Shown here: positions 9,190 to 24,824 of the stretch, piece after piece
How the letters are laid out: each line of letters opens with the position of its first letter
Position numbering within the stretch: position 1 is the first letter of the stretch
Virus record (IMG/VR): IMGVR_UViG_3300037603_000044
Location: 1-27,371 of that record
DNA length: 27,371 nt
From: a virus
Taxonomy: Duplodnaviria > Caudoviricetes
Strand: one strand, 5' to 3'
The notes under the pieces: model-generated
The model's input: only the letters and a program-made list of their open reading frames with translations
Database searches by the model: none
What the model was told of the DNA's origin: nothing
Program-made: the position numbers and the translations under genes

Positions 9190-11583
9190 CTATGCCGCCT
9201 TCCGTTGTTTGGCGTCGCGTGCGGTGAGTTGGTCGTGGGTGAGTGGCCCGCGCTTGATCAGCGCATTGATCAGCCGCGCGTCCTTGATCGTGTCGTCCGG
9301 GTAGCGGCTGATCGTGGTGCAGCCGCAGTTGATGACCTCGCCCGCGGGAAGCGAGGTGTCGCGCGGGTGCTGGCAGCGGAAGCTGCCCTTCTCGCTGCTG
9401 ATGACGAACGCCTCGTCGACGTCGATCGGGTCGGCGAGGTAGACGCGCTCGGCGGAGATGTGCCCCTGCCGGCCGGTCTCCTTGCGGCTGTGCAGCCAGG
9501 ACTTCATCGGGACGCCGGCCTGGAGCCGGCCGAGGTGCTGGCCGCGCTCGACCGACGAGGCGACCTCGGTGCGGGCGATGGTCTTGGCCCGCTTGCTGGA
9601 GACGTCGAACTGGCGCTGCAGGCGTTCGGCGAGCGTGGTGGCCGACTCGCCCTGGGCCAGGCCCTCAGCGAGCTGCTCGCGGATCTCGCGGGCGAGCGTG
9701 TCGTTGATGTCGGTGATCTGGATGACGCGCTGGCGGATCGCTTCACGCGCCGGGCCGCCGTCGATGTTGAACGGGTCCGCGTCCGCGGGTGCCTTGCCCT
9801 CGGCCGCCGCCGCGTCATCCATCGACTGCTGGCCGCCCAGGCGGAACGAGGCGACGATGATCGGCCGGGCCTTGCCGCGCAGCGCCTTGTCGGCGGCGAT
9901 GAGGTCGAAGAGGACCTCCCCTATCAAGTCGCGCACCTTGCGTTGATCCAGCGAGCGGAGCTGCTCGGGCGTCATGCCCTTGAGCCGCTTGCGCAGGTTG
10001 GCGATCGTCTCGTTGCGCAGCCGGTTGTAGTGGCCGGCGACGCGCTTGCGCATCTCGCGCTGCAGCGGCAGGTGCGTGTTCCACCACTGTTGGTGCAGCT
10101 GGTCGAGCTGCGACTCGGTCAGCTCGCGGACGTGTGTCGGTGCGGTCGAACGGGCCGGCGTTTGCTTTGGCTCGGCGGGTGGGTCATCCGGCCCGTCGTC
10201 CGGATCGGCGGGGTCGGGCTCTTCGCCGGTCGGCGGCCCGAAGTCGCCCAGGTCTTCCTGGACGTCGACCAACGACATGGGCTTGTACCAGGTGTCGCCC
10301 CAGGGCTGTTCTTCGAACGGCGCGTCGGTCGAGCGGAGGATGTCGTTCAGCGGCACGCCCATCGCCAGCCACTTGTCCAGCTGATCAACGCTGGCCAGCC
10401 GCATGCGCTGGACCGGGCCGATCGACGCGGCGTCGAACCAGGCGTAGAGCATGCCGCCACCTTGGGCCGCACGCATCGCCGCGTTGCGGCGTTGCCACGA
10501 CCGGGCGCGGGTCGTGTCGAGTTCGCGGCGGCGTTCGCGGCCGCCGGCGACGCCGAGGTTGCGGCTCGCCAGGGCGTCGGTCCATTCCTCGGCGAGCCAC
10601 TCCGCGTCACCGAGGATCGAGTCCCACAGCAGCTCGTGCGCCGCGTTGGCGTGCGCGTAGTTGGAATCCTCGTAGTAGCCGATCGTCGCCGGCGGCACAT
10701 CGTAGCCGGCGCAGATGTCGGTCCGGCTCATCTTCTTGAGCTCGGTGAACTCCATCTCCGCGAAGGCGTTCTGGATGCGGTGGAAGTCCATCTCGCCCTC
10801 GGCGAACATGAGCTTGCGCCGCTTGAGCACGCCGGTGTATCGATCGTTGACCTGTTCGCGCAGGTCCTGGCGTTGCGGGTCGCTGAGGTTGGTCTTGAAG
10901 TTGAGGATGCCCGACGGGGCGACGTCGTTATCGAGCGACGAGACGTTCGCCACGTCGGCCTTGAAGTACTGCTGCACCGCGAGGTTCACCGCGTGCCGCA
11001 CGCTGAGCGGGCAGTCCAGGCCCCGCTCGTAGTCCGGGCTCACGACCGGGTGGATTTCTTCCAGCGGCAGCTCGATCCACGCCCCGGCGTTGGTGCGGTA
11101 CCACCAGCCGTCCTGGACGCCTTCGCATTGCTCGCCCGGCAGCGTCTCGCCTCTGTACCGCGGCTTGATGCGCCATGCCGGGAACGGCATGCAGTTGATC
11201 GGCTGCGCCCCGTCGGCCATGTCGCCGCCGGCGGTGGCGAACCACCAGTAGGCCGCGCCGCTGAGGTCGAGGTAGCTGCTGGTGACGTGCCAGAACTTGC
11301 GGCGCGTCAGCTTGGGATGCGGCTGCTCGGTCAGCTCGACGGCCGGCCCAGACTCGACCACGACGTCATCGCCGGTAGACAGTCGCAGCGGCATCTGCCC
11401 CAGCGCCTTCGCCCGCTTGCGGACACAGGCGTAGACAACCGAGACCTGGCGATACGGCGAGGTCGCGTCCTCCTGGTTCAGGTGATCCGGCCCGACGAAG
11501 TAGCGGTCGTACGGGTCGCTGAAACCGCGCAGCGCCTTGGCGGCAGCTCCGAGTCGAGTCAAGATGTTTGCTTTGATCTTCAT
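9190..11583 (-). CDS. HK97-type portal fused to C-terminal MuF/SPP1 gp7-like head morphogenesis domain, 797 aa
   Basis: Portal motifs VYACVRKRA..MPL, LSGAAYW, DICAGYDVPP; Pro/Asp linker; MuF motifs RAKTIARTE, KSWLH, R.GH, EVINCGCT. Confidence 0.88.
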   Translation of the reverse strand: MKIKANILTRLGAAAKALRGFSDPYDRYFVGPDHLNQEDATSPYRQVSVVYACVRKRAKALGQMPLRLSTGDDVVVESGPAVELTEQPHPKLTRRKFWHVTSSYLDLSGAAYWWFATAGGDMADGAQPINCMPFPAWRIKPRYRGETLPGEQCEGVQDGWWYRTNAGAWIELPLEEIHPVVSPDYERGLDCPLSVRHAVNLAVQQYFKADVANVSSLDNDVAPSGILNFKTNLSDPQRQDLREQVNDRYTGVLKRRKLMFAEGEMDFHRIQNAFAEMEFTELKKMSRTDICAGYDVPPATIGYYEDSNYAHANAAHELLWDSILGDAEWLAEEWTDALASRNLGVAGGRERRRELDTTRARSWQRRNAAMRAAQGGGMLYAWFDAASIGPVQRMRLASVDQLDKWLAMGVPLNDILRSTDAPFEEQPWGDTWYKPMSLVDVQEDLGDFGPPTGEEPDPADPDDGPDDPPAEPKQTPARSTAPTHVRELTESQLDQLHQQWWNTHLPLQREMRKRVAGHYNRLRNETIANLRKRLKGMTPEQLRSLDQRKVRDLIGEVLFDLIAADKALRGKARPIIVASFRLGGQQSMDDAAAAEGKAPADADPFNIDGGPAREAIRQRVIQITDINDTLAREIREQLAEGLAQGESATTLAERLQRQFDVSSKRAKTIARTEVASSVERGQHLGRLQAGVPMKSWLHSRKETGRQGHISAERVYLADPIDVDEAFVISSEKGSFRCQHPRDTSLPAGEVINCGCTTISRYPDDTIKDARLINALIKRGPLTHDQLTARDAKQRKAA

Positions 11584-15735: not shown

Positions 15736-15938
15736 GACCGGTGCCTCCGTGTTCGCCCAGACAGCCGACGGCCACGTCGCATCTTCGACTTCGTACCCGG
15801 CCGTGCGTTCGCTCGTTTCCGCGGCGTGGGCTCGACCATGCGCGTAGGCAGCTTCTCGTCGCAGCGCTCGATCACGAGCGTCGACGTCGCGGCGGCCATC
15901 GCCAGCAGGGACAGGGAGGGTCGGATTCCCTTGTTCAC
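15732..15938 (-). CDS. Small basic hypothetical protein, 68 aa (start GTG, MNKGIR)
   Basis: GAGGGGG RBS; GTGA and ATGA overlaps with both neighbours. Confidence 0.55.
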   Translation of the reverse strand: MNKGIRPSLSLLAMAAATSTLVIERCDEKLPTRMVEPTPRKRANARPGTKSKMRRGRRLSGRTRRHRS

Positions 15939-16372
15939 GCTAGTACCCCCTCGCCGCCGATCACGGTGGCGTCCAGCGCCGCCGCGCCCGCTTCCTGCGC
16001 CGCCTGCAGCGCGCTGGCGACGCGTGTGCTGCCGACCGGCGCGGGCTCGCCTGTGGGCGTTGCGGTTTCGTGCTGGTCGCGCAGCCGGACGCGGTTGATG
16101 CGCACCGACCGCGGGACGTTGAAGAACAGCTTCGCGCCGCGTTTGGTTCGCTTGTCCAGTTCGACGCGTGCCGGGCCGTCGAAGTAGCCGTCGAGGTGGA
16201 TCGAGTCGGCCACGTCGAGCCAGGCGGTGATGCCGTTTCCGTCGCGGTCGCGGACGACCAGGCGTGCCCCAAGGTCGCGCGTCTGGTCGAGCGTGATCGT
16301 GACGCACTCGCTGTCGCCGGTCAGGCTGACGAGGTCGATGCGGTCGCCGATATCCAGGCCGAGCTTGAGCAT
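15935..16372 (-). CDS. CsrA/RsmA-like protein with apparent tandem duplication, 145 aa (start MLKLGL)
   Basis: MLKLGLDIGDRIDL resembles CsrA N-terminus; ARVELDKRTKRGAKLFFNVPRSVRINR resembles CsrA C-terminal half; AAGGA RBS. Confidence 0.55.
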   Translation of the reverse strand: MLKLGLDIGDRIDLVSLTGDSECVTITLDQTRDLGARLVVRDRDGNGITAWLDVADSIHLDGYFDGPARVELDKRTKRGAKLFFNVPRSVRINRVRLRDQHETATPTGEPAPVGSTRVASALQAAQEAGAAALDATVIGGEGVLA

Positions 16373-16410: not shown

Positions 16411-16469
16411 GGAAAAACAAAGGCCGAAACCATCGCGCGAAGTAAGCCCTGGTGCGATGGCTTCGGCCT
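16411..16469 (-). terminator. Intrinsic terminator/attenuator in late-operon leader
   Basis: 16-bp stem (one G-U pair that forms only on minus-strand RNA) running into TTTGTTTTT. Confidence 0.8.
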
Positions 16470-16548
16470 CGGTGGCCGTTTGGGATTTCTACGAAGGGTT
16501 CACCCCTCGACAAGCTCGGGGTGGCCGGGTGATGAAGCCGGTCTTTAC

Positions 16549-16577
16549 AGCGTGCCCTATCGGGCGATGCTTGTCAA
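16549..16577 (-). promoter_or_regulatory. Putative sigma70 late promoter
   Basis: TTGACA (16577-16572), 17 bp, CACGCT (16554-16549); A-tracts upstream. Confidence 0.6.
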
Positions 16578-16609: not shown

Positions 16610-17074
16610 TTATGTGGCATATTTCGCGTCCCCAGGGCTGTTGAGCAACTGCTCCCCTACTTGGTTGATCGATGAACGCGCTGAAAGCAGATTGTCGTTC
16701 AGCAGGTTACTTCTCGTTTTATGGAAAGAGTTTCCAAACGACTCGGTTACCTTCTCAATGCTCATCTTCAGTTCAACGAAGCCTTCATCGACCATATGCT
16801 CTGGGAGTTCGATCGCATGGATTCGGTGGCTGTTCTTGCCATATTCGACGAGTACGCCGTCCTGTAGTTCTTGTTTGGCAACACGCTCCTGGTCGATGTA
16901 GCGGAACTCAATTCTGAAGCCTTTACCCTCTCGAACTACAAGCGCTCGCACTGCGATCGGCATTGCGTGAGGCGACATCATCATCCGGATCTGCGTACCA
17001 CCGCCGGGCTTTTTCTCTACCTTCGGAGTAACGTCGCGGAAAGACTTGTTGTCGATGCGAATCCAATCTTTCAT
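16610..17074 (-). CDS. Moron gene 2: hypothetical with DUF2283-like segment, 154 aa
   Basis: FRIEFRYI...QELQDGVLVEYGKNSHRIHAIEL resembles DUF2283; AT-richer; starts 2 bp after upstream stop. Confidence 0.7.
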   Translation of the reverse strand: MKDWIRIDNKSFRDVTPKVEKKPGGGTQIRMMMSPHAMPIAVRALVVREGKGFRIEFRYIDQERVAKQELQDGVLVEYGKNSHRIHAIELPEHMVDEGFVELKMSIEKVTESFGNSFHKTRSNLLNDNLLSARSSINQVGEQLLNSPGDAKYAT

Positions 17075-17076
17075 GG

Positions 17077-17886
17077 CTACACCTTCTTGAGCATTGTATT
17101 CAGAGAATTTCCAAACATCTGATACATCTGCATGGCGTTGTCCTGTACGCCGCCTGGCGCTACGCTATCAATGACGATGACACCCCATGGGTTCTCGTTA
17201 CTTCCGACGGGGATACCGCACATGGATCTGGGAAGCGGTTTGCCCTTGTTGAGTCTGTCATGGACCCAATCAACATCAACGTGGGTTGCTTTGGCATATT
17301 CATCGACACGTTGAGGTACCCGCTTGTGCTGTTCAATTTCGGGGAGGTCTTGAGCAATCAACGTCCGATTGCATGACCAGGTGTGCCCCGCCCAGCCGGA
17401 GGCAGTGCGGTCATCCCGAGATACTACGAAAGCTGCTGTCGATTTTTGCGTTTGATGGCCTGAGCGTGCAACTGGGACAAGAAAAAGGCCTCTCTTAAAC
17501 CAAAGGTCTCTACGCCCGAGGCACCTCCACCATGGGCAAACCCGAAACAATGTTACGCGGTGTGAGTGGTTGGGGTCTTCCAAATACTCCTGAAACAAGG
17601 CGTTTCTGAGTTCGTTGAGTTGCTCGTTGATAGCCTTCCAGACCCAAGGTCTCCCCATCCACTTGACGAGGACTGCCCCACAGATAGCCACCAACGAGGC
17701 AATGGGGATGATGACGTGAGCGTGGCTCGACATCGGATCGATGAAAAAAGCAGACCATTGCCATCCCCGGGCGTCCGTATCAACGCCAGTAGCCCAACCA
17801 GTGACACCTGACACCCCTGCGCCCAAGAACCCCAAGGCGTTGGTCGCGTGGTAAATGATTGCTCTTCTACCCGAATTCACGATCAA
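17077..17886 (-). CDS. Moron gene 1: two N-terminal hydrophobic helices plus GAF-like domain, 269 aa
   Basis: Two hydrophobic segments; RVTLF, GWAGHTW, RSMCGIPV..PWGVIVIDS GAF-type motifs; TTG start; AT-richer. Confidence 0.75.
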   Translation of the reverse strand: MIVNSGRRAIIYHATNALGFLGAGVSGVTGWATGVDTDARGWQWSAFFIDPMSSHAHVIIPIASLVAICGAVLVKWMGRPWVWKAINEQLNELRNALFQEYLEDPNHSHRVTLFRVCPWWRCLGRRDLWFKRGLFLVPVARSGHQTQKSTAAFVVSRDDRTASGWAGHTWSCNRTLIAQDLPEIEQHKRVPQRVDEYAKATHVDVDWVHDRLNKGKPLPRSMCGIPVGSNENPWGVIVIDSVAPGGVQDNAMQMYQMFGNSLNTMLKKV

Positions 17887-18722: not shown

Positions 18723-19013
18723 TCACTTCGGGTCTCGCGTGTTGCTTGCCTTCGGCCCTGCCGCGCGCTTGGCTTTGACTTCAGCCTCTTGAACCAGGGA
18801 TCGCGCCCCTCCGATCATGTTCGATGACAGCACCCGCTCGACGAGGGTGTCGCGGGAGGCTTCCGGCTGGGACAAGTAATTGAAGAGTGCGGCCTCCAGG
18901 ATGGTCTGCCGCATGCCCTTTGCGCCGCCGAGCCGCTTGACCTCAGCGTCGAGCTGCACCTTTAAGGCGTGGCGGAGTTGCGTGCCAACCGAGATGCGCT
19001 CGTCATCGCTCAT
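18723..19013 (-). CDS. Ribbon-helix-helix-like DNA-binding protein, candidate repressor, 96 aa
   Basis: ISVGTQL-RHALKVQLDAEVKRLG-GMRQTILEAALFNYL fits the beta-alpha-alpha RHH pattern; divergent from early operon. Confidence 0.65.
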   Translation of the reverse strand: MSDDERISVGTQLRHALKVQLDAEVKRLGGAKGMRQTILEAALFNYLSQPEASRDTLVERVLSSNMIGGARSLVQEAEVKAKRAAGPKASNTRDPK

Positions 19014-19034: not shown

Positions 19035-19118
19035 TATCTAGGGTGAGTCAACATTATTTCTAGAAACAGTCTTGACAAGCCGACATCGTCAAGGTAACTT
19101 CTAGAAACACCCTAGATA
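19035..19118. promoter_or_regulatory. Divergent promoter/operator switch
   Basis: Rightward TTGACA(19072-77)-17-TAACTT(19095-100); leftward TTGTCA-16-TAATGT; inverted TATCTAGGGTG/CACCCTAGATA; two TTCTAGAAAC; CTTGAC/GTCAAG. Confidence 0.8.
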
Positions 19119-19121
19119 TCC

Positions 19122-19310
19122 ATGCCCAAGCCAGCCCTCAAACCCGATGCAAAAGACCGCTGCTACGTCACGGTCAAGGACCGGCGCACCGGCAAGTCCA
19201 AGTGCCTGACGGTCTACGACATCCGGCCGGACCGGCTGATCGACCTGATCCGCAAATCCATTAAAGACGCAGACGACAAACGCTCGCCGGCCAACGCCGA
19301 CGCCGCGTGA
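19122..19310 (+). CDS. First early gene (Cro/Ner position), basic 62 aa, no clear HTH
   Basis: Directly after rightward promoter; GC-biased codon usage. Confidence 0.75.
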   Translation: MPKPALKPDAKDRCYVTVKDRRTGKSKCLTVYDIRPDRLIDLIRKSIKDADDKRSPANADAA

Positions 19311-19314
19311 TTTT

Positions 19315-19380
19315 GGTTCGCCGGGCACGGTGCCCGGCGGTTTCTACGAAGGGCTTGATGAGCCCTACCCCTCGCGGGCC
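19315..19380 (+). ncRNA. Candidate structured antisense RNA
   Basis: Two hairpins and possible closing stem; exposed segments complementary to late leader at 16486-16509. Confidence 0.45.
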
Positions 19381-19653: not shown

Positions 19654-20181
19654 ATGTCGATCGACCTGATGCGCGAGATCAAAGAAGAGGGGGCCAGCTC
19701 GATCGCCGAGCTCCGCGTCATCCTCAACCGCAGCGAGTCCGCCGTCTACGACTACTTCAACCGCACCGAGCTGTCGGCCGGCCAGTTCTTCCGGCTCTTC
19801 GCGCTCGCCAAGTCCGACCGTGTCCGCGAGATCATCCTCAAGCACCTGCTGCCCGGCTCGGGCTGCCAGGTCGTCTGGCTGCCCGACGCGCTGGACGCCG
19901 ACGGCGACGGCGACGTCGATACCGACGACGCGACCAGCCGGGCGATCAACGCCGTCGGCGTGCTGCACAAGACGCTCAAGGCGCTGCGCGACGAGTCGGG
20001 CGACCGCTCGGACGCGGCGAGCCTCCAGGCGATGCGCGAGAGCTTCATCGGCCTGGTCGAGGAAGCGACCGCCGGCCTGGCCATCATCGACTGGCTGATC
20101 AAGCAGGCGATCGCCCACCCCCGCCGGCGCGCCCGGCCGGTGCTGAACGGCGAAACGCGGAAGGGGGCGCGAGGTGTCTAA
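19654..20181 (+). CDS. HTH regulator (CII-like position) with EF-hand-like loop, 175 aa
   Basis: SIAELRVILNRSESAVYDYF HTH; DADGDGDVDTDD loop; AAAGAGG RBS before ATG 19654. Confidence 0.7.
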   Translation: MSIDLMREIKEEGASSIAELRVILNRSESAVYDYFNRTELSAGQFFRLFALAKSDRVREIILKHLLPGSGCQVVWLPDALDADGDGDVDTDDATSRAINAVGVLHKTLKALRDESGDRSDAASLQAMRESFIGLVEEATAGLAIIDWLIKQAIAHPRRRARPVLNGETRKGARGV

Positions 20182-21254: not shown

Positions 21255-21451
21255 GTGACCGCACCTTCTTCATGTTGGCATGGTGGATCGCGATGTTCGT
21301 GATCGGTTTCCTGCTCAGCCGTCTGGGCTTTTCGATCGGCGACGTCATCGCGATCGCGGCCGGGCTGGTCGCGGCGATGGTCATCGTGCCCTGCGCCTTC
21401 GCCGGCCTCTTCATCGACCTGGACAAGTACAAGGACCAACGCCAGCAGTGA
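21251..21451 (+). CDS. Small two-TM membrane protein, 66 aa (start MSDRTF)
   Basis: Hydrophobic; ATGA/GTGA coupling on both sides. Confidence 0.7.
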   Translation: MSDRTFFMLAWWIAMFVIGFLLSRLGFSIGDVIAIAAGLVAAMVIVPCAFAGLFIDLDKYKDQRQQ

Positions 21452-23688
21452 CCGCCCTCCGACTCACCCAACCCGACGCCCCGGCCGGTCACATCGACTT
21501 CGCCAACTGGCTCACGCTGGACCAGGCGGCCGACAAACTCGGCATCACCGCCGGCCGGCTGCGTGGCAAAGCGCCCGCGCTCGCGGCCAGGGGCCTGGCG
21601 ACCAAGGCCCAGGCACCCGGGCAGTCGCGGCCGGTCTGGTGGATCGCCCGGCAGTACGACCCGCGGCTCTGGCGCGGCGAGGCGGGGCGCAAACAGCAGC
21701 CGGCCGACCTCGGCCAGCTCACCGCGAAAAACCGCGACCTGGTCCGCCAGCGCATGGCCGCCCTGGACAGGTTCCGCTCGACCCGCGCCGCCGAGTCGCG
21801 GCCGGTCAAGGACTGGCTGCCCGAGCTGATCGACCAGCTCCGCGCCGATTTCCCCGACGCCTCGGTCAGCCGGTCACACCTGTACGAATGGGACAAGGTC
21901 GTGCGGACGCCGGCCGACGCGATCGAGCTGGCCGACGGGCGCGGCGGCGACCAGTACCACGACCGCTACACGGAGTTCTGGAAACGCTTCGAGCTCGACT
22001 TCCTCGACCCCAACCAGCCCAAGGTCAAGCACAGCTACGACCGCGTCCGCCTGGAGATGCGTGCCGAGGGCGCGGACCCCAAGACGATCCCGTCGCTCCG
22101 CACCGTCCACCGCCAGCTCGACGACCGGATCGCCCCGGCGACCCAGGCGTACCACCGCGACCGCGAGGGCGAATACAAGAGCAGGTTCCTGCCGACGATC
22201 CAGCAGGACACCGAGCGCTTCGCGGCTGGCCGCTGCTGGGTCTTCGACCACACGACGATGGACCTGTTTGTCCGCGCGGGTGAGCGCGTGTTCCGGCCCT
22301 ACCTCACGACGGCCCAGGACTGGCGAACCCGCAAGATCGTCGGCTGGTGCCTGACCTACACGCCCAACAGCGACTCGATCCTGATGACGCTGCGCGAGGG
22401 CATCCTCGACCGCTCGAACATGGGCGGGCCCGAGCACATCTGCTTCGACAACGGCAAGGACTTCGACGCGTGGTTCTTCGACGGCCGGACCAAGCAGCAG
22501 CGCCGCCGCAAGGTGCAGAACGACTGGCTGGCCGAGTCGAGTTTCCGCGGGATCTTCGCGGAGATGAAGATCGAGCCGCACTTCTCGATCGCCTACGCCC
22601 CCAACGGCAAGGCGCGGATGGAGCGCTGGTACGGCTACCTGCACGACAGCTTCGAGCGCACCTTCCCCACCTACTGCGGCAAAGACACGACCAGCAAGCC
22701 CGCCGACCTCGACAAGCGCCTGGCCAATCTTCCGGGGGTGCCGACGTATGAGCAGCTGCACGAGCGGCTGAGCGACTGGGTCGACGCGTTCAACCGCCGG
22801 GCCGACCACAACATCGAGGACCTCAAGGACGAGGGGCTGCGCCTCTCGCCGACGCAGGCGATGGCCGCCTGGTGCGACACGCGCCGGATGTTCGGCACCA
22901 GCGACGAGCACGAGCGCGGTGTGCTGGACAAGCTGCTCATGCACCACGACCGCCCGACGTCGGTCGGCAAGACGGGCGTCGGCATCACCGTCGCGGGCAG
23001 CAAGCTCTACTTCGGCCTGGTCCACGGCGTGATCGTCCCCGAGCTGCGCGGCTACCAGGGCCACGCGAAGAAGAAGGTGCGCTGCGCCTACGACCCGCGC
23101 GACCTCTCGGCGATCCACGTGTACGACGACGCCGACGGCCGGCTGATCTGCATCGCGCCCAACAACCAGACCGACTCGGCCGGCGGACGCCAGCGCGTCG
23201 CCGAGGCGCACCGCGCGATCCGGGCCCACCACAAGAAGCTGGCCGACGCCGGGGTCTACCGCGGCCGGCCCAAGCTCAGCGCGCTCGAGTTCCAGCTCGC
23301 GACCGACACGCTGCCCGACGCGCCCGAGCCGTCGACCCGCTCGATCAAGCCGGTTCAAACGGGCTTCGACCAGGCGTCGAAGCAGGCCCAAGAGCAGCAG
23401 TACAAGCAGGCCGCCGGGGCCGAGTTCGACCAGGACGAGGACGAACCGGACATCCTCGACGCTCTGGCGAACCAGGGCGGCCCGAGCCCGACCCAAGACG
23501 ACGAAGAAGACGAGGCCGACGTGTTCAGCCTCGCCGACTTCACCGACCCCTCCACGCCGGCGGACGGTCCGCCGGATGACCAGGAGGATGACGACGACGA
23601 CACGGATGTCTCGCTGACCTTCATGCCCCCCGACGATCGCGACGAGGACGACGACGATCTGCCGGGGGTCCTCGACGTGCTCCGATGA
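21448..23688 (+). CDS. MuA-like DDE transposase, ~746 aa (start GTG)
   Basis: N-terminal HTH, WVFDHT / FDNGKDF / KARMERWY catalytic triad, YDPRDLSAIHVY C-terminal barrel. Confidence 0.93.
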   Translation: MTALRLTQPDAPAGHIDFANWLTLDQAADKLGITAGRLRGKAPALAARGLATKAQAPGQSRPVWWIARQYDPRLWRGEAGRKQQPADLGQLTAKNRDLVRQRMAALDRFRSTRAAESRPVKDWLPELIDQLRADFPDASVSRSHLYEWDKVVRTPADAIELADGRGGDQYHDRYTEFWKRFELDFLDPNQPKVKHSYDRVRLEMRAEGADPKTIPSLRTVHRQLDDRIAPATQAYHRDREGEYKSRFLPTIQQDTERFAAGRCWVFDHTTMDLFVRAGERVFRPYLTTAQDWRTRKIVGWCLTYTPNSDSILMTLREGILDRSNMGGPEHICFDNGKDFDAWFFDGRTKQQRRRKVQNDWLAESSFRGIFAEMKIEPHFSIAYAPNGKARMERWYGYLHDSFERTFPTYCGKDTTSKPADLDKRLANLPGVPTYEQLHERLSDWVDAFNRRADHNIEDLKDEGLRLSPTQAMAAWCDTRRMFGTSDEHERGVLDKLLMHHDRPTSVGKTGVGITVAGSKLYFGLVHGVIVPELRGYQGHAKKKVRCAYDPRDLSAIHVYDDADGRLICIAPNNQTDSAGGRQRVAEAHRAIRAHHKKLADAGVYRGRPKLSALEFQLATDTLPDAPEPSTRSIKPVQTGFDQASKQAQEQQYKQAAGAEFDQDEDEPDILDALANQGGPSPTQDDEEDEADVFSLADFTDPSTPADGPPDDQEDDDDDTDVSLTFMPPDDRDEDDDDLPGVLDVLR

Positions 23689-24824
23689 GCGACCAGCGCG
23701 ACATCTTAGATGGGCTTCAAGACGACGCCCGGAGACTGCGAGTGGCAAGGACGCTGCCCCCCACCGGTGACCTACCCCCCGACCAGATCAAGCTGGTCGC
23801 CGAGGACTTCGAGCGCTTCCTCCAGGCGACGGGCCTGTCCCTGGACAAGGTGAGCAAGTCGCTCGGCTCGGGCTACAGCGCCTCGGTGCTGTCGACCTTC
23901 AAGTCGATCGGGCCCGACGGCCGGACCAAGTACACCGGCAACGTCGACAAGGTCGCCCGCGCGGTCAACGGCTACATGGAGCGCTACGCGCAGCAGCAGG
24001 AGGCGTACCGGCCCGAAGGCTTCGTGCGGACCGAGGCCGCGGTGCGGATGCTCACGGTCGTGCAGCAGGCCCAGCGCTTGCGGGCGATGGGCCTGATCAC
24101 GTCCGACCCGGGCCGGGGCAAGACGATGGTCCTCAAGGCCGCCCAGGCGATCTACCACGGCGCGATCTATATCCGCGTCCGGCGCAAGCGCCGGACCGAC
24201 GCCGGCCTGATCCGGGCGCTGCACGACGAGATGCGGCTGCGGGCCAAGGGCACCGGCTACGACATGGAGCAAAAGATCATCGAGACGCTCGGGGGCACCG
24301 ACCGGATGCTCCTGATCGACGAGGCGCACCAGCTGACAAAGAGCGCGCTGGAGTTCATCCGCGACATCAACGACGAGTGCGAGATCCCGATCGTCCTGGC
24401 CGGCACGCGCGACCTCGAGCAGAACACCCAGGACCAGGGCGTGTTCTTCGGCCAGTTCGCCAGCCGCGTCGCGCTCCGCTACGACGTGAACGACAGCGCC
24501 CGCTCGGGCAAGGGCGGCGCGCCGTCGGACCCGACGATCAACAAGCCGATCCACACGGTCAAAGAGATCCTCGAACTGTTCCAGGGCAGCAAGCTGCGGC
24601 TGACCGACGACGGCCGCGACTTCCTGTTCCAGCTGGCCAACCTCGAAGGGCGCGGCGGCCTCCGCCTGGTCCGCCAGGTGCTGTCGATCGCGATCCCCTA
24701 CGCCAACGGCAAGCAGCTGAGCCGCAAGGTCCTGATGAAAGTCGTGCGCGACATGCATGGCAAACGCCGGGCCGACGTGCAGCTCGCCCGCGAGATCGAG
24801 CAGTTGAAAGTGAAGGCGGCATGA
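23685..24824 (+). CDS. MuB-like AAA+ transposition ATPase, 379 aa
   Basis: N-terminal HTH, SDPGRGKT Walker A, LLIDEAH Walker B, LEFIRDI, SRV finger; coupled to transposase. Confidence 0.92.
   Translation: MSDQRDILDGLQDDARRLRVARTLPPTGDLPPDQIKLVAEDFERFLQATGLSLDKVSKSLGSGYSASVLSTFKSIGPDGRTKYTGNVDKVARAVNGYMERYAQQQEAYRPEGFVRTEAAVRMLTVVQQAQRLRAMGLITSDPGRGKTMVLKAAQAIYHGAIYIRVRRKRRTDAGLIRALHDEMRLRAKGTGYDMEQKIIETLGGTDRMLLIDEAHQLTKSALEFIRDINDECEIPIVLAGTRDLEQNTQDQGVFFGQFASRVALRYDVNDSARSGKGGAPSDPTINKPIHTVKEILELFQGSKLRLTDDGRDFLFQLANLEGRGGLRLVRQVLSIAIPYANGKQLSRKVLMKVVRDMHGKRRADVQLAREIEQLKVKAA

Follow-up and report, generated by a model that had tools for sequence, protein, structure and literature searches.

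An early-transcript RNA complementary to the late-operon leader and its terminator in Mu-like phages: a candidate natural counterpart of STARs

To our knowledge, the switches from early to late transcription that have been described in phages use proteins, such as Mu C, lambda Q and sigma factors; the Q protein, which is the key to late control in lambdoid phages, modifies polymerase. Phage RNA can also act through split complementarity, as in the C4 RNA of P1, which comes from the transcript that it regulates and is flanked by its target sites. The CI RNA of P4 is described as being processed from the transcript it regulates, with targets that flank it, and as causing termination (PMC4825925). 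Late control in lambdoid phages is outlined in one source as a promoter, PR', that is always on, with transcription terminated and then read through by antitermination (PMC7547250), and the late promoters of phage Mu are reported to lack a -35 element and to need the protein C (PMC2582627). RNAs that act in trans to turn on transcription by disrupting an intrinsic terminator have so far been synthetic constructs: STARs are engineered trans RNAs that bind the 5' stem of an intrinsic terminator and cause read-through, and the 2015 preprint on them states that no natural or synthetic sRNA transcription activator was known before (10.1101/022772).

The DNA analyzed here, called the window throughout (27,371 nucleotides; a 27-kb record that occurs in pond metagenome runs, with no RNA run among those listed), is a fragment of a Mu-like transposable phage. 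It carries adjoining genes for a MuA DDE transposase and a MuB ATPase on the plus strand (positions 21280-24824; PHROG 310 and 296; Pfam Mu-transpos_C, DDE_2 and AAA_22) together with virion genes (PHROG and Pfam), which on the minus strand encode a terminase, a portal fused to a Mu F domain, a prohead protease and an HK97-type capsid protein. The host probably belongs to the Phycisphaerae, because the nearest named relatives (L007 and L008) are prophages in Phycisphaeraceae genomes and the MuA matches are labelled Planctomycetota. A prophage of this kind is also present on a 4.1-Mb contig of G427. The first late gene (15935-16372, minus strand; 145 aa) has homologs 3' of the terminator in L091 and L164, and is followed downstream by genes in the lysis position and for terminase, portal, protease and capsid. 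Its product had no Pfam match at E ≤ 1, and by eye it resembles two CsrA-type repeats. A C-rich 9-mer with a GGA core is present in 13 copies on both strands of the window (0.18 expected), at positions 354, 3460, 4962, 5335, 5821, 6249, 13090, 13870, 19407, 19509, 20896, 22730 and 26511; two copies lie just 3' of the early RNA described below, and the motif is common in relatives, for example L007. It could be a protein-binding or translation signal, and the 145-aa protein and this motif might constitute a second, protein-based layer of RNA control.

The region that separates the divergent operons contains a low-GC insert, a gene resembling IrrE/ImmA (Pfam E 0.014, under the cut-off), a 96-aa gene and the early promoter. 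The insert (16610-17886) separates the late promoter from the immunity region and contains two genes with a GC content of 0.53-0.60, one product having a weak GAF match. Further genes were noted around the late leader in relatives: a small gene that by eye is acyl carrier protein-like early in the late operon of L004 (about 1800-2050) and L087 (about 9790-10040), a tRNA-Met gene directly after the late terminator in L006 (2004-2076) and L002 (1484-1556), and, in L091 (1872-1961), a tRNA 5' of the leader and on the opposite strand.

The early promoter (19047-19116, plus strand), placed from sequence, has its -35 at 19072-77 and its -10 at 19095-19100, and was absent from the list of a strict promoter scan. 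Two repeat copies with a palindromic core (19058-65 and 19099-19106) overlap this promoter and are putative operators. The 96-aa gene (18723-19013, minus strand) diverges from it, has homologs in the same place in L006, L141, L164 and L166, yields a product with no Pfam match at E ≤ 1, and by position would encode the repressor. On the early side, the first ORF (19122-19310, plus strand; 62 aa; homologs in L006, L007, L141, L164 and L166) is followed, at or near its stop codon, by the putative regulatory RNA segment (19307-19366, plus strand), which was delimited by its predicted fold and whose layout is kept and sequence changed in relatives. This segment consists of site 0' (19307-11), hairpin H1 (19319-39), site A' (19339-53) and hairpin H2 (19350-66), the last containing site B' (19359-66), which is partly paired within the RNA's own fold. 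Two hairpins with a closing stem had been suggested here in a preliminary description of this DNA; both hairpins are found in the MFE fold (z -2.88), while the closing stem lies outside it and is not kept in relatives. A 175-aa gene 3' of the RNA (19654-20181, plus strand), presumably CII-like and with no Pfam match over the cut-off, served as a position marker in relatives. An Rfam match to SorX at 19278-345 was rejected, with 20.3 bits against a cut-off of 46.6.

The late promoter has a consensus -35 hexamer (16572-16577, minus strand), identified from sequence and an alignment of three leaders, and a -10 at about 16549-16554 that is weak in the window and better in the close relatives G503 and G706; the start site is inferred to lie near 16543. 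This promoter was likewise absent from the strict scan's list. The leader extends about 125 nt from the consensus -35 promoter to an intrinsic terminator (16412-16470, minus strand) with a 17-bp stem (16470-16454 with 16436-16420), a 17-nt loop and a U-rich tail, and relatives likewise have a consensus -35 followed, 77-200 nt further on, by a strong hairpin. The terminator hairpin (-35 kcal/mol) is near-identical in G503 and G706, the leader fold is highly stable (z -4.49; none of 200 shuffles was as stable), and the terminator is the default fold of the leader, no helper being required. Three minus-strand sites within the leader are complementary to the early RNA. Site 0 (16529-16533), the loop of the first leader hairpin, was found by eye and is weak in the window, where it comprises only 5 bp, compared to 11-12 bp in L021, L085, L090 and L016. 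Site A (16484-16498) forms 13 Watson-Crick pairs, or 15 pairs with one G-U, with early positions 19339-19353. Site B (16443-16450), the terminator loop, forms 8 bp, one of them G-U, with 19359-19366; it had been missed before, and by energy alone it is not above chance in the window. Sites 0, A and loop B are all unpaired in the finished leader. Nascent folds further contain a small competing helix of 5 bp (16464-16478, minus strand), a putative antiterminator that is predicted to hold the 5' base of the terminator until the 3' arm has been made (in the window, p 0.013 against shuffles and 0.20 against random 18-mers).

The preliminary description had proposed that two repeats, 19341-53/16486-98 and 19367-74/16502-09, make the early RNA complementary to the late leader. 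Both repeats are present on the same strand and in the same order, with the late copies 16-40 nt upstream of the terminator hairpin, and because the operons diverge (MuA/MuB on the plus strand; terminase, portal, protease and capsid on the minus strand) the plus-strand early RNA is indeed complementary to the minus-strand late leader. The 13-mer alone is only modestly beyond chance, since a common word of at least 13 letters occurs in 11 of 4905 random pairs of stretches of the same sizes, and the window contains 125 repeated 13-mers; it is judged real because of the evidence from relatives. Contigs of runs X3 and X4 cover both sites with no differences, and therefore the match is not an artefact of assembly. 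Site A has a third near-copy, at 18048-60, which coincides in part with a likely ribosome site.

Compensatory changes at site A were found among the window, G503 and G706, the last a third close relative that came from the blind set described below. Of the 13 early positions of site A, 6, 5 and 6 differ among the three (5 of 13 between the window and G706), and every early change is matched at the paired late position, with one extra unmatched change at the end in G503; cross combinations of the three break the pairing in the middle. The G503 leader is almost identical to that of the window apart from site A, and its partner could be predicted from the leader: the prediction had two exact matches in the genome, one being the leader itself and the other lying on a separate contig, where the surrounding sequence can be aligned with the early RNA of the window and a MuA gene 76% identical to that of the window follows about 2.1 kb downstream. 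The G503 locus (L093, 1546-2640) keeps the RNA pair and has a different immunity module, with two divergent HTH-like genes by eye and other operator-like repeats, in place of the 96-aa and 62-aa genes. Site B forms 9 Watson-Crick pairs in G503 and 8 in G706. The second of the original repeats, in which 16502-16509 is the 3' strand of the second leader hairpin, fared differently: by pairing counts, all 8 positions pair in the window, and at best 6 of 8 in G503 and 5 of 8 in G706; this site is specific to the window and at most a helper. The conserved second site lies within the terminator itself, in its loop or its 5' arm. Pairing in trans at more than one site, and its co-variation in related phages, are thus upheld by the relatives, with a different second site.

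To extend the comparison, terminase searches yielded 16 loci, the window included, for which it was possible to locate both the late -35 and the first early ORF; their terminases are 48-69% identical to that of the window and spread over a quick tree. Fixed windows, chosen after several of the loci had been seen, were used (170 nt for the leader, and from 100 nt upstream to 120 nt downstream of the stop of the first ORF), and every leader was scored against every early segment. The energy trace over cognate pairs was -901.7 kcal/mol compared to -709.0 ± 24.1 for permutations, and the Watson-Crick trace was 165 compared to 60.0 ± 10.6; for each, none of 100,000 permutations was as good. By energy, the cognate early segment was the best in its row for 10 of 16 leaders, the window itself ranking third in its own row and seventh in its own column. 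Within single loci, 11 of 16 cognate windows scored above every background window of the same locus; this comparison failed in L007, L012, L081 and L082, of which L081 and L082 fall in an outlying group of the tree, and was tied in L087. The opposite strand at the same place scored 2-7, and the inverted orientation was at background. Loci were left out for too little upstream DNA (L001, L003, L005, L011, L017, L018 and L020), for a late side only (L002, L004 and L091), for a short layout with MuA about 2-5 kb from the terminase (L008, L014, L015, L080, L088, L089 and L092), for a promoter or first ORF that could not be placed (L024, L083, L084 and L086), or for a terminase only 23-29% identical (L009, L010 and L026-L036). 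The seven short-layout loci are one clade (support 96) and have in common a hairpin with a U-tract before the early genes. L002 shares the late sites of L006 and has tail-like genes upstream (1-1420); an early partner for its leader was not found within its 24%-complete record.

A blind set of new loci was drawn from a MuA alignment, and a fixed rule (a -35, then a strong hairpin with a U-tract) was applied to its 55 stretches, 22 of which qualified, including three pairs of near-duplicate loci. At 8 of the 22, no non-cognate leader scored as well on the early side as the cognate one (binomial 6.6e-6 at p 0.05; 8.8e-4 at p 0.10), and at 4 further loci only one non-cognate leader was equal or better; the remaining 10 showed nothing. 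The early sites again adjoin the stop of the first ORF. In the Phycisphaeraceae loci of this set (L157, L159, L164 and L165), site A precedes the terminator by 26-36 nt, and in L157, L164 and L165 site B is found 19-25 nt inside it. A looser look at seven other loci, which was not blind, revealed two clustered matches of 11-16 nt in L103, L141, L154 and L166, and none clustered in L137, L146 and L163. Searches by other routes added little: MuA alone found no viral relative, a pattern combining the two original repeats had no match in viral contigs, and a terminator consensus pattern hit 33 loci, with Mu-like early genes only in L065, which is the contig of L016. Taken together, the co-variation, the prediction in G503 and the blind test indicate, at the level of sequence, that the pairing between the early RNA and the late attenuator in trans is real. 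It is conserved as complementarity and not as sequence, the site sequences having nothing in common between distant phages. Chance matching in GC-rich DNA, to which the random stretch pairs sharing 13 or more letters would lend some credit, has a negligible probability in the face of the permutation, prediction and blind tests; it is ruled out for site A and may account for the second of the original repeats and for site 0 of the window.

The repeats could also be DNA elements, either binding sites for a protein that all face the same way or the borders at which the immunity module recombines. Direct DNA repeats give the same Watson-Crick signal as pairing RNAs, and the count of G-U wobbles against A-C mismatches, which showed no enrichment (helix edges 15 versus 19, internal 3 versus 1), did not separate the two; in addition, a different immunity module lies between the same repeats in G503. 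However, each phage has two or three unrelated site sequences, located in hairpin loops or terminator arms, the site spacing differs on the two sides, and the inverted orientation scores at background. Furthermore, the window and G706 share the 96-aa and 62-aa regulators, yet their site A changed in step at 5 of 13 positions. For this last reason above all, we regard DNA sites as very improbable and RNA pairing as the preferred reading.

The anatomy of the pair falls into two classes. Class I (the window, G503, G706, L006, L007, L013, L016, L021, L025, L087, L142, L157 and L165) has up to three sites: the early side of site 0, at the stop of the first ORF, pairs with the loop of the first leader hairpin; A', which follows an early hairpin, pairs with a part of the leader that is unpaired; and B' pairs with the terminator loop, often extending into the upper stem. 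The sites are mostly in the same 5'-to-3' order on both RNAs, L021 being the exception, which fits docking as each site emerges, and their spacing is unequal on the early and late sides. A cis helix at the 5' base of the terminator was present in 10 of 14 nascent leaders (at least 4 cross pairs; Fisher p 3e-4 against shuffles and 0.06 against random 18-mers, with 11 non-redundant leaders). In class II (L019, L023, L085 and L140; L110, L112, L113, L114 and L145), the early RNA covers the 5' arm of the terminator over 11-18 bp, and in the last five loci a helix of 17-18 bp spans both the arm and the loop and exceeds the hairpin in stability. The three class II leaders tested (L019, L023 and L085) have no cis helix, as expected if the RNA does that job. 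Overall, 22 of 23 hairpins have their best helix with the early RNA over the 5' arm or in contact with the apical loop, a count made without a chance control in GC-rich terminator arms that attract chance helices. Pairing is kept in L090, L103 and L141, where no clear U-tract follows the long hairpin, and the terminator tails of L154 and L166 are weak. In the former three leaders, site B lies within the long hairpin, as does a second hairpin with an ATG. In both G503 (10 bp) and G706 (8 bp), the best pairing with the terminator hairpin forms on the hairpin's 5' arm. The early strand of this helix lies, by eye, a little 5' of the stop of the first ORF (about 19285-19292 in the window, where the helix is shorter, with equivalents in L093 and L164), and it may be an extra site like those of class II.

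The 3' tail of the first early transcript is complementary to the late-operon leader in two or three short segments, one of which is in or at the terminator hairpin. From where these segments bind, it can be argued that the sign of regulation is activation, and we think it likely that the early RNA is a trans-acting antiterminator that lets polymerase read into the virion genes. In a lysogen, the late promoter would fire and transcription would stop after about 125 nt. Once the early promoter is freed of its repressor, early RNA would accumulate and dock at sites 0 and A, the first to emerge from the nascent leader, and pairing at site A would open H2 and free B'. In class I, B' would capture the terminator loop and upper stem while the small cis helix holds the terminator base; in class II, B' would capture the 5' arm itself. 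The terminator hairpin would then be unable to close in time, resulting in read-through into the virion genes, and the early RNA would stand in for the Mor/C protein cascade of phage Mu. Antitermination is favored because the RNA binds at places where it would prevent or slow the folding of the terminator, which is the leader's default structure, because the 5'-arm targets are open only in nascent RNA, because the RNA lies under a repressible early promoter, and because the late promoter has the -35 that the C-dependent promoters of Mu lack. It is also favored because the Mor/C family (PF08765), whose replacement by RNA had already been suggested, was found in none of 10 relatives (genomes or records, most of them incomplete: 40-66% complete, or metagenome bins) and in none of the 43 window ORFs scanned, the window ending within the early operon. 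However, it should be noted that site B in the family of the window is 8-9 bp inside a 17-nt loop and could coexist with the stem, and that the loop site of the window is not its best helix by energy.

Under the opposite sign, the early RNA would promote termination in the late leader and delay the late genes during transposition. A loop-loop contact as in the window need not break the stem, the competing helix is one that the RNA might disfavor, and P4 CI is a precedent, pairing with two sites and causing termination (PMC4825925). Nevertheless, the terminator is already the stable fold, site A is located upstream of the competing helix and not on it, and the hairpin cannot form when the 5' arm is covered or when pairing extends through the upper stem; moreover, another activator would be needed, and no Mor family member was found in those relatives. 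The pairing geometry, as modelled, argues against termination as the outcome, and this alternative appears distinctly improbable. Only a little less improbable is activation by another route, in which the RNA blocks Rho loading, frees the start site or delivers a protein antiterminator, and the hairpin is secondary; L090, L103 and L141 pair strongly in spite of having no clear U-tract, and sRNAs that block Rho-dependent termination are known (PMC6582626), but most leaders have a strong hairpin with a U-tract on which the sites are centered.

The strongest rival to antitermination is the reverse direction, for which the same base pairs would serve. The terminated late-leader RNA, being made constantly, would pair with the nascent early transcript past the first ORF and cause its termination or decay. 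A constitutive promoter with an early terminator would yield abundant short RNA, such a short RNA is described as regulatory in Shiga-toxin phages (PMC7547250), the open sites 0, A and loop B of the finished leader would be available to it, and a hairpin with a U-run lies right after B' in L013, L016, L019, L023, L085 and L140. Against this, the class II target is the 5' arm of the terminator, which is locked in a hairpin of -24 to -39 kcal/mol once the leader is finished, the window has no scored terminator after B', and a protein repressor with operators probably already acts on the early promoter. We consider the reverse direction unlikely, and a role of the leader RNA in immunity or feedback, in the manner of P4 CI, unlikely to the same degree. 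Even with the sign or direction reversed, the pairing would connect divergent operons through RNA in a way not yet described, as a further variation on P4 CI.

With antitermination as the preferred reading, the comparison with known systems is as follows. The short leader between a promoter and a terminator is a gate on the late genes like that of lambdoid phages, but the key here is likely RNA pairing with the leader and not a protein. Mu is the same type of genome, in which Mor and C do the same early-to-late job; the late promoters here, in contrast, have a consensus -35, and PF08765 is unmatched in the 10 relatives. The CI and C4 RNAs resemble the early RNA as phage RNAs with split, multi-site complementarity that control termination, whereas here the RNA (plus strand, 19307-66) and its target (minus strand, 16412-16533) belong to divergent operons 2.8 kb apart and, compared to CI, the target is the terminator of the virion operon. 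The proposal that the RNA might belong to the C4 families of Rfam was not borne out, as no C4 family was among the 8 window matches at E ≤ 10 and only tRNAs reached the gathering score in 11 relatives; the early RNA is not a C4 or CI RNA. Read-through driven by RNA also occurs where sRNAs block termination, which there is Rho-dependent, unlike here (PMC6582626), and with antiterminators such as canT, which act in cis and not in trans on an intrinsic hairpin (PMC11658703).

A natural phage RNA that breaks an intrinsic terminator in trans was not found in searches of the open-access literature. The claim of novelty is tempered because a review mentions in general terms, in a passage on cis-encoded RNA that gives no example, that antisense RNA may induce an antiterminator (PMC6524683). 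The main text of a survey of 224 motifs does not mention Planctomycetes, and its supplements could hold one half of the pair, in spite of there being no Rfam match (PMC5737381). We think it reasonably probable that these phages contain natural STARs, that is, that in a widespread Mu-like lineage a phage RNA dismantles an intrinsic terminator and turns on the virion genes with no protein activator. If so, such a natural family would be a new class of regulator and would show that short split pairing can outrun the folding of a terminator; each phage would have its own RNA key, the pairs forming a natural orthogonal set, and about 25 sequence-distinct pairs would be at hand for direct testing and for synthetic circuits. 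Because the pair is conserved as complementarity, profile searches miss it, and other phages may hide such pairs.

The early RNA appears, by analogy, to work most like the synthetic STARs and, among natural systems, like the T-box. As with STARs, the default fold of the target leader is an intrinsic terminator (not clearly so in L090, L103 and L141), and at the class II loci (L019, L023, L085, L140, L110, L112, L113, L114 and L145) the RNA is complementary to its 5' stem; the conserved terminator site in the window, in contrast, is the loop. The phage pair also differs from STARs in being natural, in using two or three short sites, often in a loop, and in that activation is inferred. It would resemble the T-box in that an RNA supplied in trans contacts the nascent leader at two points and tips the balance from terminator to antiterminator; the T-box, however, has a host tRNA as its ligand, which stabilizes the antiterminator bulge, and a leader conserved in sequence (PMC7430163). 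No T-box match was found with Rfam in the window or 11 relatives, where the partner is instead the phage's early RNA: a ligand that the phage itself encodes, that hits the terminator and whose sequence is private to each phage.
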